A stretch of DNA of 44,050 nt from sequence record OM632667.1. The stretch is one strand, 5' to 3'. Of the stretch, positions 1 to 44,050 are shown piece after piece; within the stretch, counting starts at the first letter, position 1; each line of letters begins with the position of its first letter. The position numbers and the translations under genes are program-made. The notes under the pieces are model-generated. The model saw only the letters and a program-made list of their open reading frames with translations. It did no database searches and was not told the origin of the DNA. This DNA is from Escherichia phage BEU33.

Positions 1-1251
1 ACGGAGCCGCAAGGCGCGTTTCTCGGTATGCATTGCAAGTTTCCGGCATTCGTAGCTGGCTTCGGTACGGGTAAATCCGAAGTTATGTGCAACTCTGCAC
101 TACTCGACAGCATGGAAGGTGGTAGCGATTCTATCATCGCCATGTATGAGCCGACCTATGACCTGGTGCGCCTCATCCTTGCACCGCGTATGGAAGAAAA
201 GCTCACCGACTGGGGTATCCGGTACAAATACAACAAGTCTGACAACATAATCTATACGTCTTCCGGACAATTTGGGGATTTTGTTCTGCGTACACTTGAT
301 AATCCAGCAAGAATCGTTGGCTACGAATCGTTTCGTGCGAAAATCGACGAGTTGGACACCCTTAACATGGAGCACGCCGAGCACGCGTGGAACAAAGTCA
401 TCGCCCGTAACCGCCAGTTGCCGCGGACATATAAACCTATTACACCGAAACCTGCTAATACCGTTTCCGTGTTCACTACTCCGGAAGGATTCCGTTTCGT
501 ACATGACCGCTGGGTAGTCAAAAAGAATCCAGGCTACGAGATGATTCAGGCGTCCACCCTGTCTAACCCGTTCCTGCCAGAAGATTATGTGCAGTCGTTA
601 CGCGACACATACCCAGGTCAGTTGATTGACGCCTACATCGACGGCAAGTTCGTAAACCTCACGTCCGGAACGGTATACTATGCTTACGACCGCAGGAAAA
701 ACAGCAGTCGCGAAACAATCAATCCCGGCGAGACTCTGTATATTGGGCAGGACTTTAACGTAGGTCACATGGCGAGCACGGTTTACGTGCAACGCGGTAA
801 GGTCTGGCACGCTGTTGCCGAGTTGGTTGATATGTTCGATACGCCTGACGTAGTGCGGGCCATAACTGAGCGATGGAAAAGTAAGGGCCACTATATCGTT
901 ATGTACCCGGACGCCAGCGGCAAAAACCGTAAAAGCAACAACGCCAGTACCTCAGACATCGCTCAGTTACAGCAGGCCGGTTTCGAAGTACGCGCCAAAT
1001 CAACAAACCCGCCGGTTAAAGACCGCGTATCAGCAATGAACAAGGCGCTTGAATCTGGTATGGTCATGATTAATGAGCAGGCATGCCCGGTTACGGCGCG
1101 ATGCCTTGAGCAACAGGCTTACGACAAGAACGGCGAACCAGATAAATCGGGTGGTGTGGACCACCAGAACGACGGGACCACATATCCTATCGCGTATGAA
1201 ATGCCGATTCGCAAACCAGTTATTAATGTCCCGGTGACTTTCGCACTTTAA
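1..1251 (+). CDS. terL: terminase large subunit, N-terminally truncated by window start
   Basis: Frame 1 is open from position 1 with no upstream stop; Walker A-like FVAGFGTGKSE near the N-terminus; lies between terS and portal. Confidence 0.75.
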   Translation, partial: TEPQGAFLGMHCKFPAFVAGFGTGKSEVMCNSALLDSMEGGSDSIIAMYEPTYDLVRLILAPRMEEKLTDWGIRYKYNKSDNIIYTSSGQFGDFVLRTLDNPARIVGYESFRAKIDELDTLNMEHAEHAWNKVIARNRQLPRTYKPITPKPANTVSVFTTPEGFRFVHDRWVVKKNPGYEMIQASTLSNPFLPEDYVQSLRDTYPGQLIDAYIDGKFVNLTSGTVYYAYDRRKNSSRETINPGETLYIGQDFNVGHMASTVYVQRGKVWHAVAELVDMFDTPDVVRAITERWKSKGHYIVMYPDASGKNRKSNNASTSDIAQLQQAGFEVRAKSTNPPVKDRVSAMNKALESGMVMINEQACPVTARCLEQQAYDKNGEPDKSGGVDHQNDGTTYPIAYEMPIRKPVINVPVTFAL

Positions 1252-1263: not shown

Positions 1264-2745
1264 ATGTTAACTATGAACGGTCAGAATCAGGGTGTTAAGA
1301 CAAAACACCGGGAATGGCTGCACCACTTCGATAAATGGCAGAAGGTGCGCCACGCGCTGGAAGGCGACCTTATCCGCTATCTGCGCAACGTTGGGAAGAA
1401 TGAGCCGGACCCGACCTACGCGGCACAGCGCCAGGAAGAATACGAGAACGGCGCTATCTGTTACAACTTCACCAAGAGAACGCTGGCGGGGATGGTCGGC
1501 AGTGTCATGCGCAAAGACCCCGAGCAGATTATACCGCCTGAACTGGAGTACCTGTTACGTAACGCGGACGGTTCTGGTGTCGGGCTGTGGCAGCACGCAC
1601 AGGATACGCTAATGGAGATTGATTCGGTGGGTCGTGGCGGGTTGCTGGTGGACGCCCCGGAGACAGCCGCGGCAACGGCAGCCGAACAGAACGCGGGGTT
1701 ACTAAACCCGGTCATTGCATTCTACACTGCTGAGAACATCATCAACTGGCGACTGACCCGCATCGGCTCAGTGAACCGTGTGACGATGGTCGTGTTGCGT
1801 GAAGTGTGGGAATACTCAGAACCTGGAGCAGAGTTCGAAACTAAGTTCGGTGAACAGTACCGCGTCCTTGACCTGATTGATGGTCGCTACCGCCAGCGCA
1901 TTTACCGTTTCGACGCCGAGGGCGGCGCTCAGGGCGAAGTAATCGAAATCTTCCCGGAACTCGGCGAACAGTTACGCGGCAAAATCCCGTTCACGTTCAT
2001 TGGTGCAAGCAACAACGATGCAACCATTGACGATGCACCTTTGCTGCCGTTGGCTGAGCTTAATATTGGGCATTTCCGCAACAGCGCAGACAATGAGGAG
2101 TCCAGTTTCGTTGTAGGTCAGCCAACTCTGTTCATCGCCCCGGGTGAGAACATGAGCATGGAACAGTGGAAAGAAGCCAACCCACACGGCGTGCGTATGG
2201 GGTCACGTTCTGGCCATAACATCGGTTACGGCGGCAATGCGTTTCTGGTCCAGGCCGGTGAGAACAACCTAGCCAAGCAGAACATGCTGGATAAAGAGAA
2301 TCAGGCCATCCAGATTGGTGCGCAGCTTATCACCCCTACCCAGCAAATCACCGCTGAATCAGCCCGCCTGCAACGTGGTGCCGACACGTCCGTTATGGCG
2401 ACAATTGCACGTAACGTAAGCATGGCGTATACCGATGCGCTAAAGTGGGTTGCGGGTATGCTTGGGCTTAGTGACGGCACTGAAATTGAGTTCAAACTGA
2501 ACATGGAGTTCTTCCTGCAACCAATGACCGCCCAGGACCGCGCTCAGTGGATGGCGGATATTAACGCGGGCCTGTTACCGGCTACCGCTTACTATGCCGC
2601 GTTGCGTAAGGCGGGGGTAACTGACTGGACAGACGAGGACATTCAGAACGCTATCGAGGATGCGCCGCTGCCGTTAGGTGCTGTTACTCAGGTGGCGGGG
2701 GAGATTCCGCAGTCGGCGCAGCAACAGGACACCACTCAGCCGTAA
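1264..2745 (+). CDS. portal protein
   Basis: 493-aa ORF directly after terL with RBS AAGAGGA; size and position typical of portal; no motif verified. Confidence 0.6.
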   Translation: MLTMNGQNQGVKTKHREWLHHFDKWQKVRHALEGDLIRYLRNVGKNEPDPTYAAQRQEEYENGAICYNFTKRTLAGMVGSVMRKDPEQIIPPELEYLLRNADGSGVGLWQHAQDTLMEIDSVGRGGLLVDAPETAAATAAEQNAGLLNPVIAFYTAENIINWRLTRIGSVNRVTMVVLREVWEYSEPGAEFETKFGEQYRVLDLIDGRYRQRIYRFDAEGGAQGEVIEIFPELGEQLRGKIPFTFIGASNNDATIDDAPLLPLAELNIGHFRNSADNEESSFVVGQPTLFIAPGENMSMEQWKEANPHGVRMGSRSGHNIGYGGNAFLVQAGENNLAKQNMLDKENQAIQIGAQLITPTQQITAESARLQRGADTSVMATIARNVSMAYTDALKWVAGMLGLSDGTEIEFKLNMEFFLQPMTAQDRAQWMADINAGLLPATAYYAALRKAGVTDWTDEDIQNAIEDAPLPLGAVTQVAGEIPQSAQQQDTTQP

Positions 2746-29942: not shown

Positions 29943-29962
29943 TATTTTCGACCCTTAGTAAA

Positions 29963-29990: not shown

Positions 29991-30001
29991 TGATTCAGAA
30001 A

Positions 30002-30911: not shown

Positions 30912-32149
30912 TCTAAATCCTCCTCTGTAACTTGATTCCACTCAGGACGTTTGTCATCCGCCGTTGCGACGCATGGCGCACCGGGCTTACGGGTAATGAA
31001 GTCTTTCAGTTCTTCTTCCGGTACAATTTTAACCGCTTCGGTCGGTGTCATAAGAACTACCTTTTGCAGCATAGTACCGTACTTCTCGAATACTGCATCG
31101 GTATCTTTCCACGCACGATTACCCGGGCGTCCTTCAACCAGTTTATACCCCGGCACTTTCTTACCGGAATGTAACGCAGCAGCCATAGCTTTCTCAACCT
31201 TGTCGATGTGCTGGCGCAACAACGGCAACTTCTCATACTCAGCTACGAGTTGCTCTGGCGTAAGCTCAAGTGCAAAGTCGTCCTCCAGTTCTTCCGCCAG
31301 CCCCGCGTTAACGGTTTTTGTACGCGCTGCGCATTGTTCAGAGAACCGACACCACTGACAACCATCTACCGACGGCTTGAAGTCCGACGCTTTCAGGTTC
31401 TTTTTACCCCGGAAATAGGCATCAAGAGCCAACAGCGCCCGTTTCTGTGCAAACTTAGCGAACAGTTCCAGACCTTCAACCGAGATGTCCCACTCCGATG
31501 CACCGCCAGCGTACGGCTGGAAGATGACCAGTCGAACGGTTGTTATGCTATAACGTCTCTTGAGTCGGCGATAAACGCCGAGAGCATAAAGCATAAGCTG
31601 CTTGTTTTCTTTCGCTTCGACACGATGCCGCCCGGTTTTCAGGTCGCAGATGATAAGCATGTGTTCGTCGGTGTTAGCCAGTTCCTGTATGGCAACAAGG
31701 TCAGCAGTTCCGAACGTCTCAACGCCTTCATACCCCGGATGCAATACCTCAGTAAGATTAACACGCATTTCCAGCTTGGCGTAAGTCGCTATATCGATAA
31801 TCGCCTTGCAGTAGTCGGTGTACTTGCGCACCTGCTCAATCATGTCCGCCGTAATCAGTACCGCGCCTTTCATCGGGCTGATTAGTGCCTTAATCTGGCC
31901 TTTGCCTTCATCCAGCACGTAAGCACCGACTTCACGCTCTAACGGCAGCGCAGTTCCGCGAATATAAGCGTTGAGATGGACCTCAGCTATGGTGTGCATT
32001 GCCGTGCCTAATACAGCGGCTTTACCTGACGTGTTAGGGATATCTTTTTCACAGGCCAGTGATGCCGCGCAACTTAGCCACTTTTTAGCCCCTGACGGCG
32101 ACAGTAAGGCATGTACATCGTTATTGCCGCCGCGTTCTTTAAGAATCAT
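30908..32149 (-). CDS. PD-(D/E)xK nuclease, DUF2800 / Cas4-like exonuclease
   Basis: N-terminal LSPSGAKKWLSCAAS, ICDLK (D/E)xK motif, C-terminal Cys cluster CQWCRFSEQC. Confidence 0.65.
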   Translation of the reverse strand: MILKERGGNNDVHALLSPSGAKKWLSCAASLACEKDIPNTSGKAAVLGTAMHTIAEVHLNAYIRGTALPLEREVGAYVLDEGKGQIKALISPMKGAVLITADMIEQVRKYTDYCKAIIDIATYAKLEMRVNLTEVLHPGYEGVETFGTADLVAIQELANTDEHMLIICDLKTGRHRVEAKENKQLMLYALGVYRRLKRRYSITTVRLVIFQPYAGGASEWDISVEGLELFAKFAQKRALLALDAYFRGKKNLKASDFKPSVDGCQWCRFSEQCAARTKTVNAGLAEELEDDFALELTPEQLVAEYEKLPLLRQHIDKVEKAMAAALHSGKKVPGYKLVEGRPGNRAWKDTDAVFEKYGTMLQKVVLMTPTEAVKIVPEEELKDFITRKPGAPCVATADDKRPEWNQVTEEDLE

Positions 32150-32508
32150 CGTAAACTCTCCAAATACAAGTTTAATGCCTGTAACTGTTCTTCTGTAGGA
32201 ATGAAAGAATCATCGCGATGTAAGTCGCTTAACTGTTGCAACATTCCTGCGAACTGACGTCTTGCGTCAACAGCGTCCATGTGATGCTTTTCACTTTTAT
32301 ATATTAATGTTTTCGGGTAATCCTCAAGCCTGCCAGACGATTTATTCACGCGGAGCGCACGAGCTTCATGCACAATGTGAATGTACTTTTTGCCGTTTTG
32401 TAACACAGTAGCTACGCCGCTGCTCTTTCTGCGGTCGCCGACTGTGTAAACCTTGTCGCCACTACGCAGATTAAGCCACCATTTATCGGTCATACCCTGT
32501 TCTCCCAC
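32146..32508 (-). CDS. hypothetical protein
   Basis: ORF translationally coupled in the minus operon. Confidence 0.4.
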   Translation of the reverse strand: MGEQGMTDKWWLNLRSGDKVYTVGDRRKSSGVATVLQNGKKYIHIVHEARALRVNKSSGRLEDYPKTLIYKSEKHHMDAVDARRQFAGMLQQLSDLHRDDSFIPTEEQLQALNLYLESLR

Positions 32509-32762
32509 TGGTCAATTAAATGTCGTGTCTGGTGCTGGCAGTGCATGGCCCAGCTATACATCGACTCGAAGACATAAAAGTCAGGCTTGGCAAAAGTCGT
32601 GCGCTTAATCTGCGACACGTGACGGCCTATATCTTTGGGCCTGGGTACTTTGCCTAAGTACGCCATCTCTTCCATCTGGTGCGCACCGGAAGGAGCGCGC
32701 AATAGCCATAGAGCCTCCGTGTTATCCCGTCGGTCAATACCTCGGTAGAGTTGGTAAATCAT
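32490..32762 (-). CDS. hypothetical protein
   Basis: ORF in the minus operon. Confidence 0.35.
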   Translation of the reverse strand: MIYQLYRGIDRRDNTEALWLLRAPSGAHQMEEMAYLGKVPRPKDIGRHVSQIKRTTFAKPDFYVFESMYSWAMHCQHQTRHLIDQWENRV

Positions 32763-32804
32763 ATTACGACCCTCTGTTAAAGCGGCCAGAAGGCCGCGGG
32801 ATAG

Positions 32805-33308
32805 TTATTCTTCTTCGAAATACTTGTTCTTAATCGCCGTCAGGCGTTTCAGGTATTCAGCCAGGTCTTCGTCTTTAATCGCGGCAATCTTCATTTTCTT
32901 ACCGGTGAACTCCTCCAGCAGTTCATCGGAATCGTCGCACGCAGCATCGCTAGGACCTTCGTTAATTGCATCGTCGATAGCCTGAATCTGGTCACGAAGA
33001 GACTGGTAATCGACCTCTTCTTTCTCTTCTTCTGGTTCTGGAGTCGGCTCCTCTACTTTAGCTTTACGCGGCTTGCGTTTCGGCTTCTCTTCTTCTTCTG
33101 CTGGTTTAGCGTCAACGATGTCTTCACCTTCAACAGGGATTTCTTTTGTTGCTTCTTTTTCGCACTCAGCTACCGCTTCTTTGGTATACACTACCGTCTC
33201 TACTTCTAACGGCGCTGCAACTTGTGCTGACTGTTTCGCACTGTTCGCAGCAATCAGTTCATGTGCAACTACGAAACGTTCCAGTAATTTTAAGAATTGT
33301 TCTAACAT
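32805..33308 (-). CDS. hypothetical highly acidic protein
   Basis: Long E/D-rich stretches; early position in leftward operon. Confidence 0.4.
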   Translation of the reverse strand: MLEQFLKLLERFVVAHELIAANSAKQSAQVAAPLEVETVVYTKEAVAECEKEATKEIPVEGEDIVDAKPAEEEEKPKRKPRKAKVEEPTPEPEEEKEEVDYQSLRDQIQAIDDAINEGPSDAACDDSDELLEEFTGKKMKIAAIKDEDLAEYLKRLTAIKNKYFEEE

Positions 33309-33330
33309 TTGTTTCTCCTGTTTATTTAGG

Positions 33331-33558
33331 TTACTCGCCGTCGCCTTCTGTAAGGCTATCGTCTATTAATTCAAATTTACCGTTTGAGTGTTGGATAGCT
33401 TCTTGCCCGCAATGGTCGCAAACCACCAGTTTATCGAATCCGTCAAACTCGTCCCCGACTACGCAAGAAAGTACAAATTTATGTTTTGTACATACTTCTT
33501 GATGTTCACCGAAAATTACCCGGAAACATTTAGTTATAGCTCCAGTGATTATGTTCAT
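33331..33558 (-). CDS. small Cys-rich protein, putative zinc ribbon
   Basis: CxxC-type pattern CDHCGQ plus upstream Cys; RBS GAGGTGA; first gene of leftward operon. Confidence 0.5.
   Translation of the reverse strand: MNIITGAITKCFRVIFGEHQEVCTKHKFVLSCVVGDEFDGFDKLVVCDHCGQEAIQHSNGKFELIDDSLTEGDGE
33359..33518. repeat. inverted repeat, copy A of about 160 bp at about 87 percent identity to 34190-34349
   Basis: Hand alignment of the reverse complement of this segment with 34190-34349. Confidence 0.7.
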
Positions 33559-33586
33559 ATCTTCACCTCTCGTTTGGTATGGGCTA

Positions 33587-33616
33587 ACTATAATAGCGAA
33601 CTATTCATGATGTCAA
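33587..33616 (-). promoter_or_regulatory. sigma70-like promoter TTGACA-N18-TATAGT on minus strand
   Basis: Consensus -35, about 25 nt upstream of the 33558 start; divergent from the HTH gene. Confidence 0.6.
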
Positions 33617-33680
33617 TGGGCTTTTCTAAAATAATTAATATGGTACTATTCACACATCAACTGACTAAGGAGTAATTGAC

Positions 33681-33896
33681 ATGCAACCATCCGAACTAGG
33701 CATCCGTGTAGAGCAACGCCGTAAAGAACTCGGCATCTCCCAGCGCCGTCTGGCGGTCCTGACCGGCGTTTCCCAGGGCGCAATTAACCAGCTGGCTCTC
33801 GGTGTAACTCAGGACGTCCGCCCGGCAACGTTGTTTAAACTGGCGGAAGTGCTGGAAGTAGACGCTAAGTGGCTGGCGTTCGGTGAAGGGGCTTGA
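33681..33896 (+). CDS. XRE-family HTH regulator (Cro-like)
   Basis: 71 aa with ISQRRLAVLTGVSQGAINQL helix-turn-helix; RBS AAGGAG; lone plus-strand gene between leftward operons. Confidence 0.75.
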   Translation: MQPSELGIRVEQRRKELGISQRRLAVLTGVSQGAINQLALGVTQDVRPATLFKLAEVLEVDAKWLAFGEGA

Positions 33897-33909
33897 CGCC
33901 CCTTTCTTT

Positions 33910-34107
33910 TTATTGCACCTTTATCGGGTATCTTTTGCGAAACTTACCTAACCCGCAGTACACGCTGTAAGCCTCTGTGTAACTGAACACAACATGATAC
34001 CCGCGCCCATAAGGAACTACGTTAAGAACTTCTACTACTTCGCCTCTGTGGTTGGTGTATTTATTACCTTTCAGTTCGTCGCTTACTTCTTTAAATTTAC
34101 CGCTCAT
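33910..34107 (-). CDS. hypothetical protein
   Basis: 65-aa ORF with strong RBS GAGGAGG. Confidence 0.45.
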   Translation of the reverse strand: MSGKFKEVSDELKGNKYTNHRGEVVEVLNVVPYGRGYHVVFSYTEAYSVYCGLGKFRKRYPIKVQ

Positions 34108-34189
34108 TCCAAATCCTCCTCTGTCACTGTCAACATTTCATTCGGTTCGTATATTGTCTTTGGAATCTTGTTATCAGTTATGTTTTCAC

Positions 34190-34349
34190 GCAATTTTCGG
34201 CGCACCGCAAGAAGTATGCACTAACCATAAATTTGTACTTTCTTGCGTGGTGGGGGATGAGTTTGATGGGTTCGATAAACTTATTGTCTGTGACCATTGC
34301 GGGCAAGAAGCTATACAACACTCAAACGGTAAATTCGAACTAATTAACG
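34190..34349 (+). repeat. inverted repeat, copy B; degenerate paralog of gene 33331-33558 without a credible start
   Basis: Encodes FGAPQEVCTNHKFVLSCVVGDEFDGFDKLIVCDHCGQEAIQHSNGKFEL on plus strand but has no ATG or RBS; overlaps the 3' end of the primase-helicase gene. Confidence 0.6.
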
Positions 34350-36542
34350 AATTCTGGTGTTCAGCCTGTAACGACCTGGGATTATCTGATTGTTTTCGTC
34401 AGTACCCGGAACAAGATACCCGGCCTCAACCATTTTCTTAATCTTCCCGCGTTCTATGGCTTCTTTGGAGTTAAACGCCTTTGCGTTGGGGTCTGACTGT
34501 GCGAGCTTATTCGCCGCGGCGACTGTGATGCCTTCGTTGCCGTTGTAGGTTCCTTCCGCCAGTTCAAACGCCGCGAGTATCGTGGCCTCCGAACTGTTGA
34601 CGGCGTTCTCTACGGTTTTACGTACATTTTCTTTACCTTCTTTCGTCAACCCTTCTTCCCGCTCTTTCTCCTCGTCAGTTTTGAACGGCTCGAAACCCCA
34701 CGGCATCAACACAAGCGCCTTGTGTGGTTCAGGCAGGTCCAGGTTTACGATTGTGCCGTATTCCTCTGTGCTACCCAGGAACTCAACCGCTCGGTATTCT
34801 TTAGGTGGCGGCGCTTCACGGAACTGTACCGACTCCAGCACCATGCCAACCGTCTTCTGCTGAGGCCCGTGCTTGAATTTCGAGTGATATACGTTTATCT
34901 GACGGTCGGTTGCACGTTCGATTGTCAGTTCCACATCAACACCCGCATACAGCGCCCCACTGCCGCGTGCTTTCTTTCCACCCTTCGGCGTATGGTGGAC
35001 AACGCCTACTGCGGCTTTAGTTGCATCGCGTACTTCTTTCAGAATGGCGATAACTTTACCCATGCCGATTGCTGTTGATGAACTGTTCTCGTCGAACTTA
35101 TCAATCGTCAGTGCCAGGGTCTGGTTAAGGGTGTCGAACGCAACCATGCCAATTGGCTCGTCGCCAGCAGTTTCGCGCATTAACTTAATCAGGCTTTTAA
35201 GTTTGCCGACTTCGCCCATATCGATGACATGTACATAATCTTTACCTTCCTCGCCGTATTTAGCCGCGAGCGCATCAATACGTGTACGTGTGGCTGCCCC
35301 ACCCTCGCCGTCGATATAGAAATGGTGACAACGCTGGGTGTCAGCCCCTGCAAACCGGTATCCGGCGGCGCTCAGGTACATCATCCCCAGCGTATAGAAT
35401 GATTTGTACGTGCCCGATTCTCCGACGATACCCCAGATACAATCCGACGGCATGTACCCCTCAACGACGAAATCAGCCTTTACCGGCTCCGGTAACTCGT
35501 CCTCCTCTGAGTCCTCGTCGTCTTCCAGGTCGTCGAGGCTGCATGAGACAGATTCACGCGCCCCCCAACCGATGGCCTCTGCGACTTCACTGAACGGCAG
35601 CCCGGTCGCATCGCACGCGTACTTCCACACCTCTTTCGGTGACAGGCCTTCTGTCGCCGTAATGTCTGTGTCGTGAATCATGGTTACGTTTGGCGCTTCA
35701 TACCCCTCGCGCGGGAAGCACAGCAGGAAGTCGTCCGGGCGCGGTGTCGGGTCGCTGTAGTTTTCAGCATGTTCCGGTGTGGCTGGCATCTTAAGGCCGC
35801 GCGGCGTCATGACGCCGCCGTACTCAAACGCCAGTGCTTCAAACGCGTCTGTAAACGCGGTGCGCAGTTCTTCCGGTATCTGGTAATCCGATGCGCTGCT
35901 AACGTCAACGGCTGGGATGCCTTCCAGTAACTCGTTCGGGTCGATCAGGTCGTTGCGGCGCGACCAGATAACGGTAGCGCCGACCGGCGGCAGGTACATC
36001 GGCTGCGACAGAGTGAACCCGCTGCGGTCCGCACCCATGCCTTTGAAGAAGTGCTCCAGCAACCCATGACGAACACGGATGATATCACCACCCTCAACTG
36101 GGCGGGCCAGCGGCATGACGACGCGAAAGCGAGGCGACTCATCGGTATGTGATGCCGTGGTGTAGAGACACATCGCCCGGCGGCTGCGATTAACCAGGCG
36201 CACCGCTTCCTGGTACTCTTCCGGTGTTGCACTGTCGAAGTCCAGATACGCCAGCGACGATTTGCTCACAGACGCGTCACAGCGATAGAAGAAGCCTTTA
36301 CGCGCTTGTTTAAAGCCACCGGTTTCCGGGTCTTTTACGGTGCTGTGTGTAGAATCGCACGCGGCCGTGATATAACCGGGCGCAGTCTTGGGGTTAATCC
36401 CGTCACGAACGGCATCGAGCGGCTGGATTAACTCTTTCAGGTCGTCCAGTGTTGCCGTGTGTGCGGTTCTGACATTTATATCCTTTTTCCCCGCCCGCGC
36501 GTTGCGGCGTGACCACGAGTAGGATAAAATTACATCGGACAT
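34344..36542 (-). CDS. DNA primase-helicase (AEP-type primase-polymerase domain plus RecA-like ATPase)
   Basis: DxD motif in AYLDFDS, SHTD motif, Walker A GESGTYKS, Walker B-like MVAFD. Confidence 0.6.
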   Translation of the reverse strand: MSDVILSYSWSRRNARAGKKDINVRTAHTATLDDLKELIQPLDAVRDGINPKTAPGYITAACDSTHSTVKDPETGGFKQARKGFFYRCDASVSKSSLAYLDFDSATPEEYQEAVRLVNRSRRAMCLYTTASHTDESPRFRVVMPLARPVEGGDIIRVRHGLLEHFFKGMGADRSGFTLSQPMYLPPVGATVIWSRRNDLIDPNELLEGIPAVDVSSASDYQIPEELRTAFTDAFEALAFEYGGVMTPRGLKMPATPEHAENYSDPTPRPDDFLLCFPREGYEAPNVTMIHDTDITATEGLSPKEVWKYACDATGLPFSEVAEAIGWGARESVSCSLDDLEDDEDSEEDELPEPVKADFVVEGYMPSDCIWGIVGESGTYKSFYTLGMMYLSAAGYRFAGADTQRCHHFYIDGEGGAATRTRIDALAAKYGEEGKDYVHVIDMGEVGKLKSLIKLMRETAGDEPIGMVAFDTLNQTLALTIDKFDENSSSTAIGMGKVIAILKEVRDATKAAVGVVHHTPKGGKKARGSGALYAGVDVELTIERATDRQINVYHSKFKHGPQQKTVGMVLESVQFREAPPPKEYRAVEFLGSTEEYGTIVNLDLPEPHKALVLMPWGFEPFKTDEEKEREEGLTKEGKENVRKTVENAVNSSEATILAAFELAEGTYNGNEGITVAAANKLAQSDPNAKAFNSKEAIERGKIKKMVEAGYLVPGTDENNQIIPGRYRLNTRIR

Positions 36543-36600
36543 GTTGTATTTCCTTCAGCAAGTAATTTGGCCTCGGCGTTCACCGCGTCGGGGCTTTCTT

Positions 36601-36834
36601 TTATTCCAGGTCTTCTAAAGTAGCGGTCATTCCGCGAACTTCAGCAAAGGCACTATATTTCCCGCCAACATTTTTCACGACGCCAGATTTAACCAGCACT
36701 TTTAACGACCCTTCAATAATGACGGAACTATAGTACTTAAAATAACTGCGGCGCAAGTCGATAACGCTGCACGACCCTTTTTTACGTGTCAACGAAACGA
36801 CCGCCGTAAATACGCGTGACTGAAACTCGGTCAT
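36601..36834 (-). CDS. hypothetical protein
   Basis: 77-aa ORF coupled to the downstream primase operon. Confidence 0.4.
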   Translation of the reverse strand: MTEFQSRVFTAVVSLTRKKGSCSVIDLRRSYFKYYSSVIIEGSLKVLVKSGVVKNVGGKYSAFAEVRGMTATLEDLE

Positions 36835-37001
36835 TTCACGTTCTCCTTAATCCACGCTTCCACTTTCTCCGGGTCGAACGTACCGGGCTGCCGGCGACCC
36901 ATAATGCGGATACAACAATCAGGGAACCTCCCACTCTTTAACCAGTTATTAAGCGTGCGGCGAGTAACCCCGATACGCTCAGCTACTTCATTCTGTGTCA
37001 T
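36831..37001 (-). CDS. AlpA/Xis-like HTH DNA-binding protein
   Basis: MTQNEVAERIGVTRRTLNNWLKSGRFP pattern; ATG 37001 with GAGGG RBS preferred over TTG 37034. Confidence 0.55.
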   Translation of the reverse strand: MTQNEVAERIGVTRRTLNNWLKSGRFPDCCIRIMGRRQPGTFDPEKVEAWIKENVK

Positions 37002-37401
37002 TCTCAAACCCTCATTATCAGTTAACGAAACCAAGTATACATTGCGAATAATGGGAAATCAAACATAATCGCACCTATTGACATTATGAAAATCTTCGTT
37101 TAAGGTGCTTCTATATCTTAGTTACTTTGATTCCTGTTCACCTTGTAATACCTGCTTGAAACGCAGCGGCGCCAAAGCGCCAGCGAAGTGTTAAGCAGCA
37201 GATTACTGAACATAAGAATTACCGTAACTTTCCTTCCGTAGTATCTCTGGTTGCCCTGGGCAAGCTCTATTCTCATCGGCAGCATATCTCTTAAGTATCT
37301 GATAATTAAAAGTTTCTATAGTTGCCGTGAGCAAGGTAGAGAGTACTTCACTCCGCTGGGGTGGGCTAACGCCCACCCACTGCGTTGCGTACTCTTTTAA
37401 G

Positions 37402-37454
37402 TAAGCTCCACCTGAGCTTGTGAAGTATGAACAAGCGACCGCGGCGCGGGCAGG
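37402..37454 (+). repeat. 53-bp exact direct repeat, copy 2
   Basis: Identical to 4465-4517; lies in the divergent intergenic region 37035-37553. Confidence 0.85.
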
Positions 37455-37490
37455 AAACGAAAGAATCACAACGGCAACGTAACTATTCTC

Positions 37491-37519
37491 TTGCACACCC
37501 CAACATAATAGGATACTAT
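37491..37519 (+). promoter_or_regulatory. promoter TTGCAC-N17-TACTAT
   Basis: -10 ends about 35 nt upstream of ATG 37554. Confidence 0.5.
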
Positions 37520-37553
37520 TCACTTATCGAAACGAGACAGAGGAGTGAGGGTT

Positions 37554-37745
37554 ATGTTTAAGAAGGGTCAGTTGGTTAAAACTAAACGCGGAGGGCAATA
37601 TGTATTAGTGTTGCAGGACGAGAGCGAGTATGACGAGGATAATCTGGTTGACGTATGGGGTCTGGTAAGAAAGAAAACTGGGTTCGCCTCACGCGATAAT
37701 TTAGAACTCATCGGCAACAATTTTAAATTCAAAGGGGTGAAGTGA
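37554..37745 (+). CDS. hypothetical protein
   Basis: ATG 37554 with RBS GAGGAGTGAGGG. Confidence 0.4.
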   Translation: MFKKGQLVKTKRGGQYVLVLQDESEYDEDNLVDVWGLVRKKTGFASRDNLELIGNNFKFKGVK

Positions 37746-37951
37746 TGGAAGAATTAATTTGTATTGAATCCCGCCAGGATTGGTTTGTGAAAGGTAACAA
37801 ATATTCGTCAGGAGTATATTACGACGGCCGTCGATACGTTTTAGATGAAGACGGTGATGAATGGGATTTAGAGGACACTGTGGGCGAGACTTTAACCGTT
37901 AGTTTTCTTCAATGTTGTTTCCGCATCATTCACAACGGCATCGAATCATGA
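37745..37951 (+). CDS. hypothetical protein
   Basis: ATG with RBS AAAGGGGTGA. Confidence 0.4.
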   Translation: MEELICIESRQDWFVKGNKYSSGVYYDGRRYVLDEDGDEWDLEDTVGETLTVSFLQCCFRIIHNGIES

Positions 37952-38033
37952 GGCTCGTGCCGACGACTCTGAGGGAGGTTGCCGTGGATAATATTTTAAT
38001 TGTCAGCGCTGTTTATGTGGGGTGGAGGTTGAT

Positions 38034-38228
38034 ATGAGTCCATATAATGAATTCCGCTTACGCCGTCTTGTTGGTGGGCTGCGCGCCGCCGAGTTTGGCG
38101 TTGAATGTTGGGAAAAGGCGAAGTACACCCCATGGAAGTCGTGGAATTTGGCCCACGCTAAGGCGGTAGCGCAGTACCGGGAGTACAAGTTAAATAGTTT
38201 CCTAAAGCACCACGGGGTAGAGCTATGA
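38034..38228 (+). CDS. hypothetical protein
   Basis: ATG 38034 with RBS GGAGG. Confidence 0.4.
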   Translation: MSPYNEFRLRRLVGGLRAAEFGVECWEKAKYTPWKSWNLAHAKAVAQYREYKLNSFLKHHGVEL

Positions 38229-38368
38229 GAGAAGCATTCGAACGGTGGGCCGTCGTCGAGGGTCTGCCGGTTAACAAGGGTTCAAAGAAAGAGTACCTGA
38301 ACGTTAAGACGCGTCTTGCGTGGCGGGCGTGGAAAGCTGGTGTGCAGTATGTGATGAATACGAGGTGA
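38225..38368 (+). CDS. hypothetical 47-aa protein
   Basis: Below ORF-track cutoff; ATGA overlap with upstream stop; fills gap. Confidence 0.3.
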   Translation: MREAFERWAVVEGLPVNKGSKKEYLNVKTRLAWRAWKAGVQYVMNTR

Positions 38369-38371
38369 TTT

Positions 38372-38560
38372 ATGGGTGAGTGGATTAAGTGTAGTGAGCG
38401 GATGCCGGAGCCTTATGAATACGTTCTTGTAACTGATTGTTTTGTTGGCTGTGAGGTTATGCGTGTTAATTCGGATGGCTACTGGGGACCAGCGAAGAGT
38501 TTATACCACGGCGATATCTCCCACTGGATGCCCTTACCTGAGCCACCGGCGCCGGTGTAA
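38372..38560 (+). CDS. hypothetical protein, DUF551-like
   Basis: C-terminal HWMPLPEPP motif; RBS GAGGTGA. Confidence 0.4.
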   Translation: MGEWIKCSERMPEPYEYVLVTDCFVGCEVMRVNSDGYWGPAKSLYHGDISHWMPLPEPPAPV

Positions 38561-38594
38561 CAGGTCAATAGTTTACTATTTGGCTTTGTGACTT

Positions 38595-38630
38595 ACGCTG
38601 CTACACAGCAGCGTATCATTTTTCTCATTT
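38595..38630 (+). terminator. rho-independent terminator ACGCTGCT-acac-AGCAGCGT plus T-tract
   Basis: Perfect 8-bp stem then ATCATTTTTCTCATTTTT. Confidence 0.65.
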
Positions 38631-38708
38631 TTGTTCTATTTCACCAAACGCAACAATCGAAGCGACTATTGCGGGAGATGCAACAATACAAACACCAATA
38701 AAATTTAC

Positions 38709-38737
38709 TTGCACGCTAAGATAGAATAGGCTACTAT
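38709..38737 (+). promoter_or_regulatory. promoter TTGCAC-N17-TACTAT
   Basis: Same hexamers and spacing as 37491-37519; precedes gene 38794. Confidence 0.5.
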
Positions 38738-38793
38738 TCATTTACACAAACGAGAGGAGAGACAGAAGATGAATGTAGTGGCGAGGGAAGGGG

Positions 38794-39282
38794 ATGGGGA
38801 TGGTGAGTAGCAAAAACGAAGTATTCGAGTACCTGATTGACCAGTTACGGCAGCACGTAAATAGCCACCCGCACAAGCAGCAGTGCGAAGACCTGGCGCA
38901 TGAGGTGCAGTCACTCAAGAATCAGTTACGTGATGCGTCAGCACTGGTGGCGGAGTTACATGAAACAATAAAACTAATGAACGAGGACTTTAACCGTGCA
39001 ACCGGGCGAGGTGGCTCACTGCCGAAAGGGGAGAGCTACGTAGTAGGTGAACATGGGCCCGAGCAACCCGGTTGCCGTAAGGAAGATACTCAGGAATGCG
39101 AGCACTCTTGGATTATTATGCTTGGGTTGTTTCTCAGCGAAGGCAATACGAACAACGTTCCTGGTAGTGAGCTTTGCTCTAAATGTGGTAAACGTGAGTG
39201 GGACGACAAGGTATATAAACCGAAAAACGATACTCAGGAATGTGAGCATGAGTGGAGATGTAAGACGGTTTTTTGGCAATAG
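38794..39282 (+). CDS. hypothetical Cys/His-rich protein with internal repeated DTQECEH(S/E)W motif
   Basis: Two copies of the motif about 45 residues apart; RBS GAGGGAAGGGG. Confidence 0.45.
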   Translation: MGMVSSKNEVFEYLIDQLRQHVNSHPHKQQCEDLAHEVQSLKNQLRDASALVAELHETIKLMNEDFNRATGRGGSLPKGESYVVGEHGPEQPGCRKEDTQECEHSWIIMLGLFLSEGNTNNVPGSELCSKCGKREWDDKVYKPKNDTQECEHEWRCKTVFWQ

Positions 39283-39327
39283 ACCTGGTGTTCCGTATTG
39301 CCGTAAATGTGGTGTGGAGGCGAAGCA

Positions 39328-39531
39328 ATGACCAGCATCTTATTTATCTGGGTACTATCCGCGGGCCAGATGCAACTAGCGGCATCAGAAACGTTTTATT
39401 CGATGGAGGCGTGCCAGTCAGCGGCGCGTGCCGCAGAGAACGCGCACTTCCTGTTTCAGGGCGACAAGCCCATCGATTCAGAGGTACGCGCTATCTGCTC
39501 ACCTAAGCGACTTGGTAAACAGGAGAAGTGA
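39328..39531 (+). CDS. small protein with N-terminal signal-peptide-like segment
   Basis: MTSILFIWVLSAGQMQLAASE hydrophobic N-terminus; RBS GGAGG. Confidence 0.4.
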   Translation: MTSILFIWVLSAGQMQLAASETFYSMEACQSAARAAENAHFLFQGDKPIDSEVRAICSPKRLGKQEK

Positions 39532-39533
39532 TT

Positions 39534-39716
39534 ATGGTGCGGAGATATACCTACGACCAGATATTCGGGTTTACTCCTGATGTTGAGGGCGTGTTAGTGC
39601 TTTACGAAGATTACGCGAAACTTGAAGCTGAGTTACAGAAATACAAAGACCAGTACCCTGATTATGTCGAGTGCGCGAACTGTGGGTCGGTTACACATGT
39701 GGAGGGAGTGGAGTGA
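39534..39716 (+). CDS. hypothetical protein
   Basis: RBS AGGAG; C-terminal CANCGS. Confidence 0.35.
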   Translation: MVRRYTYDQIFGFTPDVEGVLVLYEDYAKLEAELQKYKDQYPDYVECANCGSVTHVEGVE

Positions 39717-40009
39717 TGTCGTTAGCAACTGACATCCTGAAACGAAGCGGCCTTGCGCCGCTGTCACCGAGAGCGAAGACACGTATACACAAGCGTCGCC
39801 GTAACGTGCTGTACCCAGAGATTCAGGACAGACGTAAAGCTATCCGCGCCTGTGGATTCCAGAACGGGAAGGCTGTGAATCTCGGTGAGTTTAAAACGCA
39901 GGAGCGCGCTGCAATCGCTAATCGGTTATTTAATTACTGGAAATCGCTGGGATACGATGATATTCCGACGAAACCACAGAGACGACAATACATCTGGCGT
40001 CATAAATAA
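39716..40009 (+). CDS. hypothetical DNA-binding protein, AP2-like domain
   Basis: GKAVNLGEFKTQERAAIANRLF resembles the AP2 fold signature; ATG overlaps upstream TGA. Confidence 0.35.
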   Translation: MSLATDILKRSGLAPLSPRAKTRIHKRRRNVLYPEIQDRRKAIRACGFQNGKAVNLGEFKTQERAAIANRLFNYWKSLGYDDIPTKPQRRQYIWRHK

Positions 40010-40039
40010 ACCGTTATTAAGATAATTCCTAACCGTGCT

Positions 40040-40079
40040 ATCCTCCAGTTACTGCATACTTAATACGCACCTGGAGGAT
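40040..40079 (+). promoter_or_regulatory. inverted repeat ATCCTCCAG-N22-CTGGAGGAT whose 3' arm contains the holin RBS
   Basis: Perfect 9-bp arms; GGAGG of the holin RBS is inside the 3' arm. Confidence 0.4.
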
Positions 40080-40084
40080 TCATC

Positions 40085-40393
40085 TTGGATAAATTTACTG
40101 AAACAGTGACAGGCTGGCTTCTCGCTGCCGCGCTAGCCGGAGGGGTAATCGGACTACGACAACATAAGTCTGTTATTTCTGGCCCCATCGACGGATTCTG
40201 CTTTATCGCAACCGGCTTCACTTGCGCTGTATTCGGCGCGCCTCTTGCCGCTCAATGGTTCGGTATTACCGGAGAGCGCGAGATAGCTGGCCTCGGATTC
40301 ATCATCGCAATTCTCTGGATGCCCATCTATTCCCGTCTCTCCGGTATCGTCTCTGGAGAATACATCGCTCGTCGAGGAGGCACAGATGAATGA
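40085..40393 (+). CDS. holin (three predicted TM segments)
   Basis: Three hydrophobic segments, charged C-terminus; first gene of lysis cassette; TTG start with GGAGG. Confidence 0.55.
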   Translation: MDKFTETVTGWLLAAALAGGVIGLRQHKSVISGPIDGFCFIATGFTCAVFGAPLAAQWFGITGEREIAGLGFIIAILWMPIYSRLSGIVSGEYIARRGGTDE

Positions 40394-40658
40394 GTTATTC
40401 TGGTTCGGTGGTATGCTGGCAATCGGGGGCACATCGCTGTTTAATGTGTATCATCCCAGCGTGGACGACGGATTATTTGGCCGGGTGCTCTATATCCTGA
40501 CTGCCATCGTCTGTGCTGCCGGATGTATCCACCTGTTACAGGGCAGCATGTCACCAACGCTGCCTGAGACGTTAATCACATTAGTTGCGCTGCGTCAGAT
40601 TCGCCAGGTGTGGCTGTCATACGGAGGACATAAGCGTGTCTCGAAATATTTCAGATAA
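40386..40658 (+). CDS. second holin-like membrane protein (holin or antiholin)
   Basis: Two hydrophobic segments; overlaps both holin stop and lysozyme start. Confidence 0.45.
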   Translation: MNELFWFGGMLAIGGTSLFNVYHPSVDDGLFGRVLYILTAIVCAAGCIHLLQGSMSPTLPETLITLVALRQIRQVWLSYGGHKRVSKYFR

Positions 40659-41124
40659 TGGATTGCATTTTACCGCCGCGTTCGAGGGATTCCGAGGAAC
40701 TGCGTATCGCGCTACACCGAATGAGAAGTACCTGACTATTGGGTATGGAAGCTATGGCCCGCATGTTAAGGCGGGGCAGACCATCACTCCAGGACAAGGC
40801 CTCCTGTTACTTAATCGCGATATGGCTAAAGCCGTAGCTGCGGTTGATGCGGCAGCGCACCATTCACTGACACAGGCACAGTTCGACGCTGTGTGTGACC
40901 TGGTCTACAACGCAGGCGCTGGCGTGATTGCCGCTACCACGGGCACAGGTAAGGCGCTGCGTTCTGGTGACATCGAGACGCTGCGGGCTAAGCTGACACT
41001 GTTCATCAACCAGAACGGCAGACCACTACTCGGCCTGCGTCGCCGTACAGCAGGTCGTCTGGCGCTGTTTGACGGTAAACCGTGGCAAGAGGCGGAGGCA
41101 ATTGGGCGCGCGGTGAAAGGTTGA
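40636..41124 (+). CDS. endolysin, lysozyme (GH24-like muramidase)
   Basis: Pattern ISDNGLHFTAAFEGFRG..YLTIGYG..QFDAVCDLVYNAG resembles the P22 gp19/T4 lysozyme family; GTG 40636 with RBS GGAGGA preferred. Confidence 0.85.
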   Translation: MSRNISDNGLHFTAAFEGFRGTAYRATPNEKYLTIGYGSYGPHVKAGQTITPGQGLLLLNRDMAKAVAAVDAAAHHSLTQAQFDAVCDLVYNAGAGVIAATTGTGKALRSGDIETLRAKLTLFINQNGRPLLGLRRRTAGRLALFDGKPWQEAEAIGRAVKG

Positions 41125-41190
41125 CACCTAAGACTAATCCGACGATACTTAAATCACCTCCTGTTCCATCCCTCTGCTCTCCAGTTTTAT

Positions 41191-41221
41191 CCCGGCCCTG
41201 ACCCAGCCGGGATTTTTTTTT
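41191..41221 (+). terminator. rho-independent terminator CCCGGC-N9-GCCGGG plus T9
   Basis: GC stem followed by ATTTTTTTTT after the lysis cassette. Confidence 0.7.
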
Positions 41222-41243
41222 ATCTATTTTCGGTAATGACTAG

Positions 41244-41272
41244 TTGACTATTACCCTCGACCCTATTATATT
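41244..41272 (+). promoter_or_regulatory. sigma70-like promoter TTGACT-N17-TATATT
   Basis: Good hexamers; precedes gene 41306. Confidence 0.6.
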
Positions 41273-41305
41273 TACTCCATCGACAACGAGAACGGAGTAG
41301 AGAAG

Positions 41306-41503
41306 ATGAGTAACGTACCGACAATCGCAATAACCGAGGAACTTGAAGCCAAATGTATCGCATCAGTTATAGGGAATGGTTCGGTGGAAAAACTACAGAT
41401 GAGGGCCGCTGCGGGCTACATACGCAGGGCTAATAGCGCGCAGACTGATGTTTTACGTAAACGTTACCTCGTGAAAGCGTTAGAAATACTGGAGAATAAC
41501 TAA
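41306..41503 (+). CDS. hypothetical protein
   Basis: RBS GGAG; first gene after promoter. Confidence 0.4.
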   Translation: MSNVPTIAITEELEAKCIASVIGNGSVEKLQMRAAAGYIRRANSAQTDVLRKRYLVKALEILENN

Positions 41504-41652
41504 TGAAAATCACAGATATCGAAGCATTCAAAGACGCGCAACTGATGGCACGTATCGCCGTTAGTAACCTTAGCAACAGCATCCCGGCAGACGCGTTCTG
41601 GTTCGCTGCGATGCAGACACTTAAAGCAGCATATGCAGGAGAGAAGAAATGA
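41503..41652 (+). CDS. hypothetical 49-aa protein
   Basis: Below ORF-track cutoff; TAATG overlap; RBS GGAG. Confidence 0.3.
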   Translation: MKITDIEAFKDAQLMARIAVSNLSNSIPADAFWFAAMQTLKAAYAGEKK

Positions 41653-41846
41653 AAGTTAAAGCAGCTAAAATTCTCTGGTTACCCGCCCTTGACTATGTGA
41701 CAGAGGGTAAAGTGTATGACGTATACAACCCGAAAACTACTGGTTTTGGTTATATAGTTGCCGATGACGGCTGTGATATTTACATAGACTTTGGTAGCGA
41801 TGAAGGTGATGGTTTCCACGGCGTTAAATGGGAGATTGTCGAATGA
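41649..41846 (+). CDS. hypothetical protein
   Basis: ATGA-coupled ORF. Confidence 0.4.
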   Translation: MKVKAAKILWLPALDYVTEGKVYDVYNPKTTGFGYIVADDGCDIYIDFGSDEGDGFHGVKWEIVE

Positions 41847-42001
41847 GCGAACAAACACCAATCAGCCAACCGTTACGAGTAGGCCGTAAAGTCAGTCACA
41901 CCCCGTTCCCGACACGCGAGGAACTGATGAAACGTAACAGTTTCCCGGGGCCGGACAAGAACAAGTATCTCAATCGCATGTGGGGAGAGCGTAAAGAATG
42001 A
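41843..42001 (+). CDS. hypothetical 52-aa protein
   Basis: Below ORF-track cutoff; RBS GGGAG; ATGA overlaps at both ends. Confidence 0.3.
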   Translation: MSEQTPISQPLRVGRKVSHTPFPTREELMKRNSFPGPDKNKYLNRMWGERKE

Positions 42002-42183
42002 CTGACCGCGAATATGAAAAGATGATGGTTGAGGCCGTTAACAGCGGCGTAGACATCGGACACGTGATGTGCGTCCTGAATACTAAAATCGCGGTAGCCG
42101 AGCAAATGGTCGAGTCGCTTTACGAGACGCGCCGTGAACTGATTAACCGCTTCAACCTGAACAAAGGTGACACCAATGCCTAA
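41998..42183 (+). CDS. hypothetical protein
   Basis: Coupled ORF. Confidence 0.4.
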   Translation: MTDREYEKMMVEAVNSGVDIGHVMCVLNTKIAVAEQMVESLYETRRELINRFNLNKGDTNA

Positions 42184-42463
42184 AATCACAATCGCATCTC
42201 TCGAGCGCCGTATTCTGGTGCTTGAGTCGGAGAAACAGACGTTAGGCGGGCAACTGTCGATTAACGGTGAGTTTCAGCTGGAGGCGTTCCGTATACTCCT
42301 CGGCGTTATGAAGCAGGAACCCAGCGCATACGCGGGAGTGTTCCTTGACGAGGAAGGTTCGCAGACACTAAGTTACTACGCTACCGAAGAAGAATTAGCG
42401 TTCGACGGCCCCGCGGTATCTATCCCGCTGTTCGATAACTGGATGGTGTACGACTATGACTAA
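42176..42463 (+). CDS. hypothetical protein
   Basis: ATG 42176 with RBS AAAGGTGA preferred over GTG 42167. Confidence 0.4.
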   Translation: MPKITIASLERRILVLESEKQTLGGQLSINGEFQLEAFRILLGVMKQEPSAYAGVFLDEEGSQTLSYYATEEELAFDGPAVSIPLFDNWMVYDYD

Positions 42464-42641
42464 AGCGCCTGAACCAGTAGTTATCGATGGCGTCCTGTGG
42501 AAGCCATACTCGGTTTACCACATCGACGCCGACGGGAAGAAGTTTAGCTTCTACATTTTTGCAATTAGCCGTGAGCACGCCGCTTGTGTGGTTGACGATA
42601 TTCGAGAAACGGCGTGGCTTGGTGATGAGATAGCGGGGTGA
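42456..42641 (+). CDS. hypothetical protein
   Basis: Coupled ORF. Confidence 0.4.
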   Translation: MTKAPEPVVIDGVLWKPYSVYHIDADGKKFSFYIFAISREHAACVVDDIRETAWLGDEIAG

Positions 42642-42728
42642 GAGTATGAGTCTCGAGGTGGTTATCGGTCTGGTGGGTCTTAGTTACTTCATTGGGCTGT
42701 TGGTTGGGTTTCTGTGGGGTAAATACTA

Positions 42729-42899
42729 ATGTTCAGTGACATTAACGCGGCAATCGAAGAAGCAATCTGGCGTCGCTACAACGGCGAGCAACAACGGCAT
42801 TTCTGCCTGGTGCAACGCGGTAACATGATTGCCGTAGTGCAGGACCGCGATAACAAATATCCGAATGCGATGTGGACAACGAGGAATTTTTTAGGATGA
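42729..42899 (+). CDS. hypothetical 56-aa protein
   Basis: Below ORF-track cutoff; fills gap; weak RBS. Confidence 0.25.
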   Translation: MFSDINAAIEEAIWRRYNGEQQRHFCLVQRGNMIAVVQDRDNKYPNAMWTTRNFLG

Positions 42900-43132
42900 T
42901 TACCAGCATTCCGAACCTGATTAAAGAATTCGGCACGATGGCCGAGACATGCCGGCAAACCGGCATCAACGAAATGACGATTGCGAAGTACAGCAAAGAC
43001 GTTGATTGCGAGCGCCACGTAATTTATAACAATCGTCTGATGACACATGTTAAGACAAGCCCGGTGTTATTCACGCGCCGAGGTATCACTAAAACTGAGC
43101 AACGCATTGCTAAAGGGGAGAGTGGGGAATGA
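42896..43132 (+). CDS. hypothetical protein, possible HTH
   Basis: ATG 42896; segment TMAETCRQTGINEMTIAKYSK is HTH-like. Confidence 0.35.
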   Translation: MITSIPNLIKEFGTMAETCRQTGINEMTIAKYSKDVDCERHVIYNNRLMTHVKTSPVLFTRRGITKTEQRIAKGESGE

Positions 43133-43311
43133 TTGAGATTTTGAGGGCTACGAATGTTGCTGGTGACCTGGTGTTTTGGCTGGCCTTTCTCGGTGTGCTG
43201 ATAAAACAACCGACTCTGTTTAACAGTCTCCCTCGTTACCTGTGGTGGCCTATGTTTTTAGGCATGGGTGTATCAGGCGTGGCAGGCATCCTTTTGTGGT
43301 TTTTCAAATGA
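43129..43311 (+). CDS. small membrane protein (two TM segments)
   Basis: Two hydrophobic segments; ATG overlaps upstream stop. Confidence 0.4.
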   Translation: MIEILRATNVAGDLVFWLAFLGVLIKQPTLFNSLPRYLWWPMFLGMGVSGVAGILLWFFK

Positions 43312-43412
43312 GACTACTAATCATCCCTAACGCCTGGGCCATTCCCGTAGCCAACGACCATTACGGCGGCGACGGTAAAAGAGCGCAACGACACGGCCTA
43401 TACAACTGATAC

Positions 43413-43438
43413 AAGCCCTCTACGGAGGGCTTTTCTGT
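43413..43438 (+). terminator. rho-independent terminator AAGCCCTC-tacg-GAGGGCTT plus TTTCTGT
   Basis: Perfect 8-bp stem with tetraloop and T-tract. Confidence 0.7.
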
Positions 43439-43530
43439 ACATCCCGCCCAATCCCCTTATATAATCTATTTAGACGCGTAGGGCGCGTCTGGTGCGCTCT
43501 GATGGTCAGACGCATATGCAAGGGGATTCT

Positions 43531-44040
43531 ATGAAGCTGAAACTTAAGCAGCCATCGCCAGAGGTGGTGCAAGCTGCACATGAAGAAGCTGTTAGCGCAA
43601 ACCGTCGCCGTAAACAACCGCGCGGTAAACAGAGCCTTTATCAATCATCCCGTAATTCCGCTGCGCTGTGGGACCCGGACTATTGCGACGAATTGATTCG
43701 TTTCTTTGACCGCACGTCGTGGGAGCTTGTGCCAACGTCTAAGGGTGATGAACGCCCACTGATTCAGGATAAGCCGCCGTCACTGGCCCGCTTCGCCTTA
43801 CACATCGGCGTAACTATCCCGATAATTAAGCTGTGGCTGCGCGAGATTCCCGCATTTGCAGAAGCATACGAAACCGCCCAGGCTCTGGAAGAGGCATACT
43901 TCACTGAGACAGGGGCTGCGGGCATCTCGGCTACGTTTGCTGCCGCGAAACTGGGCCTGAATAAAACAGTTGTCGCCGAAGAAGTACGCGACGAGCCAAT
44001 CAGCGAAGTAACAATTAAGGTGGTGTCCGGTGAACGTTAA
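43531..44040 (+). CDS. terS: terminase small subunit
   Basis: Immediately upstream of terL start; HTH-like middle region; ATG 43531 with RBS AGGGGA preferred over GTG 43492. Confidence 0.6.
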   Translation: MKLKLKQPSPEVVQAAHEEAVSANRRRKQPRGKQSLYQSSRNSAALWDPDYCDELIRFFDRTSWELVPTSKGDERPLIQDKPPSLARFALHIGVTIPIIKLWLREIPAFAEAYETAQALEEAYFTETGAAGISATFAAAKLGLNKTVVAEEVRDEPISEVTIKVVSGER

Positions 44041-44050
44041 TATCACGGCA
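44030..44050 (+). CDS. terL: 5' start of terL (continues at position 1 if the molecule is circular or permuted)
   Basis: GTG 44030 preceded by AAGGTGGTG, overlapping terS stop; frame runs without stop into frame 1 at position 1. Confidence 0.5.

Follow-up and report, generated by a model that had tools for sequence, protein, structure and literature searches.

Kagunavirus, a genus of the Guernseyvirinae, is described as virulent (PMC11990801, PMC9409062), and VB_EcoS-Golestan (MG099933) is a published complete genome (PMC7203180). The packaging of DNA has been addressed in several related phages. With PhageTerm, headful packaging was predicted for Sciku, a member of the Guernseyvirinae (PMC6753286), and for the Jerseyvirus SeF1 (PMC9409062), and the Kagunavirus fBC-Eco01 yielded no termini (PMC9825357). 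For the Jerseyvirus K47, P1-like headful packaging was predicted, the EcoRV pattern corresponded to a circular map and pulsed-field gel electrophoresis (PFGE) gave a broad band; the large terminase subunits (TerL) of Jerseyvirus, including that of K47, group with the TerL of P1 (PMC10783031). The TerL proteins of K1G and K1H also cluster with those of headful packagers (PMC5582158). Here we describe the two ends of the Escherichia phage BEU33 record (OM632667.1). The whole stretch of DNA that was analysed, 44,050 bp in length, is referred to as the window. Its relatives measure 40.5-46.3 kb.

The terL gene at the two ends of the window

The final 21 nt of the window (44030-44050) read GTG AAC GTT AAT ATC ACG GCA, and the sequence from position 1 on, ACG GAG CCG, continues in the same frame. 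Seven codons, encoding MNVNITA, extend from GTG 44030-44032 to the window end, and codon 8 begins with position 1. When the ends were joined, an unbroken ORF of 1272 nt was obtained, which terminates with TAA at 1249-1251 and encodes a protein of 423 aa with the N-terminus MNVNITATEPQGAFLGMHCKFPAFVAGFGTGKSE. From these data, terL is predicted to be join(44030..44050,1..1251) on the plus strand, with codons 1-7 at 44030..44050, codons 8-423 and the stop at 1..1251, and GTG 44030 as its start codon. The nearest in-frame stop upstream of this GTG is at 44009, and between that stop and the window end GTG 44030 is the sole ATG, GTG or TTG in the terL frame. It is preceded by a Shine-Dalgarno sequence, TAAGGTGGTG (44016-44025, plus strand; read from the sequence), which agrees with the consensus TAAGGAGGTG in 9 of its 10 bases; the spacing from AGGTGG to GTG is 6 nt. 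The stop codon of the small terminase gene, terS (TAA 44038-44040), lies inside the first terL codons, and the two genes overlap by 11 nt. terL would be translated from GTG 44030, and the overlap would fit coupled translation with terS.

An alignment of the window with six relatives (fEg-Eco06, SETP3, pink, FSL SP-031, phiEap-2 and St162) revealed that the GTG and its Shine-Dalgarno sequence are kept in all seven sequences, the equivalent 5' of the GTG being AAGGTGG or GTGGAGG in every relative aligned. A terL of 1272 nt, starting from the equivalent GTG, is annotated in each of the six, and the 11-nt overlap with terS is also present in the relatives that annotate this length. The preliminary description, made from the window alone, had proposed that terL starts at GTG 44030 and continues at position 1. 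The joined ORF, the presence of a single start candidate and the homologues agree with this proposal, and the upstream Shine-Dalgarno sequence and the overlap with the terS stop were found as it had described them. The N-terminus that it predicted for the joined protein, MNVNITATEPQGAFLGMHCKFPAFVAGFGTGKSE, was the one obtained.

Domains of the joined TerL protein

The joined protein matched Pfam PF03237 (Terminase_6N) at residues 24-233 with 44.1 bits (curated cutoff 22) and PF17289 (Terminase_6C) at residues 255-404 with 48.3 bits (curated cutoff 22.6). PHROG terminase profiles align to it from residue 6, so that the alignment crosses the junction. Comparison with terminase families had been put forward in the preliminary description as a check on the N-terminus, and the Pfam scores above both cutoffs and the PHROG matches support the identification as a terminase, the latter from residue 6 on. 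The Walker A motif, GFGTGKS, occupies residues 27-33, and an IDELD motif, read directly, occupies residues 122-126 and is the putative Walker B by its position. TerL is thus classed as a T4-type Terminase_6N + Terminase_6C large terminase and predicted to be a translocase/endonuclease. The 423-aa product would consist of an N-terminal ATPase domain and a C-terminal RNase-H-like nuclease domain.

The 423-aa protein is identical to a deposited protein, 'terminase large subunit [Escherichia phage vB_EcoS_SCS92]', and is found on 40 contigs of up to 46 kb. Since this is an exact, full-length public match to a protein that spans the junction, joining by chance is excluded. Searched by sequence against all PDB chains, the joined TerL had no homologue worth considering (best E = 0.15, to an unrelated kinase), and the packaging type can therefore not be inferred from structure.

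The similarity of TerL to its relatives varies along its length. Over residues 1-200, which hold the ATPase domain, identity is 94-96% with Jerseyvirus SETP3 and only 24-46% with Kagunavirus K1ind2; for the C-terminal nuclease part the values are 74-92% with SETP3 and 52-82% with K1ind2. This pattern points to a TerL that is mosaic within the genus, probably through inter-genus recombination inside terL.

Genes flanking terL

terS, predicted to encode a small terminase of 169 aa from an ATG, is located at 43531..44040 (plus strand). It matched phrog_3064, 'terminase', with E 5.6e-76 over residues 1-166. A Pfam search of terS gave no family, and the protein is recognised by PHROGs alone. Its homologue in fEg-Eco06 is a 510-nt CDS annotated as terminase small subunit. 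The longest terS ORF opens at GTG 43492; the alternative start, ATG 43531, is preceded by a better Shine-Dalgarno sequence (AAGGGG), and the version starting there fits the PHROG profile from residue 1. The annotated terS start varies among relatives, with CDS lengths of 510, 525, 546 and 585 nt. Ahead of terS is a promoter-like site, TGTACA-18-TATAAT (43436..43465, plus strand), which was recognised from its consensus match alone (10/12), and before this site a GC hairpin followed by a T-run (~43414-43438) was read from the sequence. Directly 3' of terL is the putative portal gene (1264..2745, plus strand; phrog_145, E 5.5e-149), which has the same coordinates, 1264-2745, in Golestan and K1ind2. 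This arrangement suggests that a terS-terL-portal transcription unit crosses the window junction.

Contiguity of the junction in related phages

A junction query of 1250 nt, composed of window 43401-44050 followed by 1-600, was used in a megablast-level nucleotide search. It matched 211 records, all of them phages of 40-46 kb, and in 109 of these at least 80% of the query was covered at one place. The top match was fEg-Eco06, which was 98.8% identical over all 1250 nt in a single gap-free piece; over the 240 nt centred on the junction, it differed from the window by 1 mismatch and no indel. At higher sensitivity, a 298-nt junction query was contiguous in 349 of 465 records, including members of Jerseyvirus, Kagunavirus and Cornellvirus, and K47 matched it at 81.8%. 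The window ends share no direct repeat or overlap of at least 5 nt and carry no cohesive-end signature. By these results, the 44050->1 junction is a clean butt joint, with no base missing or added. We infer circular closure of this assembly from the relatives. In replicating or concatemeric DNA, base 44050 would directly precede base 1.

Packaging and the opening point of the record

By analogy with its relatives, the virion DNA is most probably packaged by a headful (pac) mechanism. Headful packaging would produce circularly permuted, terminally redundant molecules, the reads of which would assemble to a circle without fixed ends. Since the relatives are headful packagers, circular permutation of the genome is to be expected.

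The Golestan, phiEc3, SCS44 and BEU35 records share the exact first base of the window. K-01 and VIPECOTH07 are opened 10 nt earlier, just after the terS stop, KMB35 opens at nt 24 and SHAK7858 at ATG 28. Altogether, at least eight Kagunavirus genomes (ten accessions, including one RefSeq duplicate and 590B) have their opening point in the first 28 nt of terL (window position -10, 1, 24 or 28), and TerL is annotated 16 aa short in them; the accessions opened near the terL start are MG099933, NC_042084, MZ576217, ON001686, OM632668, PQ435593, PQ417132, OR525704, OR594183 and MW722821. The 590B record ends within terL and carries a partial TerL of 197 aa. K1ind2 is an older circular record opened at the ATG of terL, and its terL (1-1251) and portal gene (1264-2745) have the coordinates found in Golestan and in the window.

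Alternatively, the virion DNA could truly end where the window does, at a fixed terminus or at a first pac cut made preferentially 10 nt past the terS stop. Four records from different laboratories open at this exact base and two more only 10 nt earlier, and in many headful phages the pac site lies in or near terS. Nevertheless, we consider physical ends at this position very unlikely. The start coordinates coincide with the older circular K1ind2 gene coordinates, which argues for a copied coordinate system, and the opening points of other close relatives fall at many places. Neither a terminal repeat nor a cohesive-end signature is present in the window, and the relatives are headful packagers, without termini and with circular restriction maps (PMC10783031, PMC9825357, PMC6753286). 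Moreover, a fixed end inside the essential terL gene would need terminal redundancy, so that the ends would join anyway. It is similarly improbable that the shared first base marks a real preferred terminase cut (pac end) ~10 nt 3' of the terS stop, in the first terL codons, although such a cut, if true, would locate the still undefined Guernseyvirinae pac site.

The shared first base looks like an inherited record convention rather than a physical end. Golestan-type records may have been opened by copying the coordinates of a K1 phage (K1ind2-type). The 5' part of the Golestan-type terL is of the Jerseyvirus type and exceeds that of K1ind2 by 21 nt, and because of this extra length the cut falls inside the gene, after codon 7. 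Annotation pipelines working on such a linear record would then take the first in-window ATG and yield truncated TerL entries of 407 aa. TerL entries that are 16 aa short (407 aa) are ATS93225.1, QZI78268.1 and UOL50891.1.

Choice between GTG 44030 and ATG 28

The truncated entries correspond to a different reading of the gene, namely that terL begins at ATG 28 (Met17, 407 aa), that the open frame at 1-27 and the distal GTG are incidental, and that there is no evidence of joining. Deposited proteins of 407 aa exist for Golestan (ATS93225.1), phiEc3, SCS44, phiWAO78-1 and 22664BS2; in phiWAO78-1 and 22664BS2 the upstream GTG is contiguous and yet was not chosen. The Pfam Terminase_6N match begins at residue 24, and the domain does not need residues 1-16. 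However, the ATG itself is not conserved, residue 17 being Leu (CTA/CTG) in SETP3 and pink, and it has no good Shine-Dalgarno sequence, only an AAGG read directly 12 nt upstream, whereas GTG 44030 and its Shine-Dalgarno sequence are kept in seven of seven aligned sequences. Codons 8-16 of terL (window 1-27) change mainly synonymously, with 3-6 synonymous against 0-2 non-synonymous changes per comparison in five relatives. The ATEPQxAFL motif encoded in this region is kept as far as Cornellvirus and phiEap-2, the PHROG alignment includes residues from 6 on, and 423 aa is the length of most of the listed members of the protein cluster. A start at ATG 28 is scarcely credible in the face of this evidence, and even if true it would leave the DNA contiguity over the junction in relatives unaffected. 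Since window 1-27 is coding but has no start codon of its own, terL must begin beyond the left end, that is, at the right end, at GTG 44030.

Genome identity and completeness

The window is colinear with Golestan from end to end, window position 1 corresponding to Golestan 1 and window position 44050 to Golestan 44829. The aligned blocks are 94-98% identical, and a few blocks in the early region are variable. Golestan covers 100% of window 1-25000 at 95.4% identity and 80% of 25001-44050 at 96.5%. By colinearity with Golestan and its 78 genes, all of the expected modules (packaging, head, tail, replication and lysis) are present. Relative to the ICTV genus guideline of ~70% nucleotide similarity, and judged by alignment and gene order, the window is assigned to Kagunavirus. 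No integrase was noted in the window, and a tRNA scan of it found none.

Taken together, the alignments make it almost certain that the window represents the entire genome of a virulent Escherichia coli siphophage of the genus Kagunavirus (Guernseyvirinae), deposited as a linear record that was opened after codon 7 of terL. The preliminary description had held the window to be a complete genome and not a fragment, and this view is upheld by the joining of the ends, the end-to-end colinearity with Golestan and a length within the range of the relatives. Its wording, 'circular or circularly permuted', was also borne out, and of the two terms 'circularly permuted' is the better fit, the relatives being headful packagers.

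The 5,426 complete E. coli genomes (20,395 records) searched with the junction gave no match, and a prophage origin was rejected on this ground. The reading of the window as part of something larger, be it a prophage, a concatemer or a longer contig, with the joining only apparent from a cut of one unit length, has next to no chance of being right. The junction is absent from those E. coli records, all 211 megablast matches are phage records of 40-46 kb, and the gene content is colinear with the full Golestan genome. The window showed no sign of an integrase, and virulence is the lifestyle described for the genus (PMC11990801, PMC9409062). A concatemer cut at one unit would in any case be equivalent to a complete permuted genome.

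Repeats, intergenic elements and the BEU35 record

The nearest relative of the window is BEU35 (OM632668.1, 'UNVERIFIED_ORG', 44,569 bp, unannotated), which contains the blocks of the window at ~100% identity in a scrambled order. The block borders in BEU35 coincide with a 58-nt repeat, a 171-nt repeat and the interior of the portal gene (window 1796/1797). Over window 1798-3473 identity to BEU35 is only 97.9%, and BEU35 is without a 53-nt insert that is present in the window at 37402. The window therefore appears, from this comparison, to be a close relative or a reassembly of BEU35 and not the same record.

The 58-nt repeat is direct and 98% identical, with copies at 4465-4522 and 37402-37459. 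Copy 1 starts at the -10 hexamer of TTGACT-17 nt-TAAGCT (~4436-4470), a site that resembles a strong promoter. Copy 2 corresponds to the insertion of ~53 nt, which lies between ...CTCTTTTAAG and AAACGAAAG. The insert is absent at this place from BEU35, from fEg-Eco06 and from all of 368 related records searched, the best coverage, split over two pieces, being 86%. Two origins are conceivable for the insert: a genuine duplication mediated by microhomology (TAAG) or an artefact of assembly. With this insert and a scrambled BEU35, the quality of the assembly elsewhere in the window is not guaranteed.

The 171-nt repeat is inverted and 85% complementary (33359-33529 and 34180-34350), and its arms flank ~650 nt with a cro-like ORF at 33681-33896. 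The second arm lies within an ORF at 34052-34441 (plus strand) and encodes a partial paralogue (…EVCTNHKFVLSCVVGDEFDGFDKLIVCDHCGQEAIQHSNGKFELI…) of a 75-aa Cys-rich ORF at 33331-33558 (minus strand). This arm also overlaps the 3' end of the helicase-primase gene, and Golestan has one copy only.

A conserved intergenic motif of 36-46 nt was found at 4340-4375, at 13575-13610 and, inverted, at 37490-37535. It contains a palindrome, AATAG-N4-CTATT, followed by TATATTGG. All three copies sit between transcription units, and the motif may be an operator or promoter element. Directly 3' of one copy and 5' of an ORF at 13718-14134 is a borderline match to the Rfam int-alpA RNA (RF02996) at 13629-13693 (plus strand; 36.6 bits against a gathering threshold of 35.8, E 4.7e-4). 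Two related GC-rich hairpins, GGCCCC-N4-GGGGCC followed by TTTT, are located at 11106-11137 and 23681-23712, where plus-strand structural genes meet minus-strand genes. They look like bidirectional intrinsic terminators.

Implications for annotation and comparison with known phages

The cutting of terL at the record ends is an ordinary effect of linearisation in a known phage genus; it is already known and brings no new biology. Its value is curatorial. The break point has spread through several GenBank and RefSeq Kagunavirus records, leaving TerL entries without their first 16 residues (e.g. ATS93225.1). Downstream annotation should treat the sequence as circular and terL as a single intact gene of 423 aa. 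More generally, a gene can be cut when a permuted genome is linearised at coordinates that were copied from a relative with a different allele.

The records of SCS92 and fEg-Eco06 show how the same locus appears when a genome is opened elsewhere. terL is intact in both. The deposited SCS92 TerL is identical to the joined 423-aa protein, and fEg-Eco06 has terS (510 nt) and terL (1272 nt) annotated contiguously with the 11-nt overlap seen in the window. Outside terS-terL, the two genomes are ~92-95% identical to the window and have some variable blocks.

Golestan (MG099933 / NC_042084, Kagunavirus golestan) has the same terminal bases as the window, beginning with ACGGAGCCGCAAGG and ending with ...ATATCACGGCA. 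It differs in its length of 44,829 bp, in several blocks of the early region and in the annotation of terL from ATG 28, which makes the protein 16 aa shorter. K1ind2 (NC_041898) is like the window in the end of terL at 1251 and in the portal gene at 1264-2745, and its terS crosses the record origin. In contrast, its TerL (416 aa) starts from an ATG at base 1 and diverges in the N-terminal ATPase domain, and the opening point of the record leaves the gene uncut. Beyond the genus, the window shares with P1, P22 and the Jerseyvirus K47 the terS-terL-portal module, a T4-type Terminase_6N/6C TerL and, by its predicted closure, an assembly in the form of a circle.
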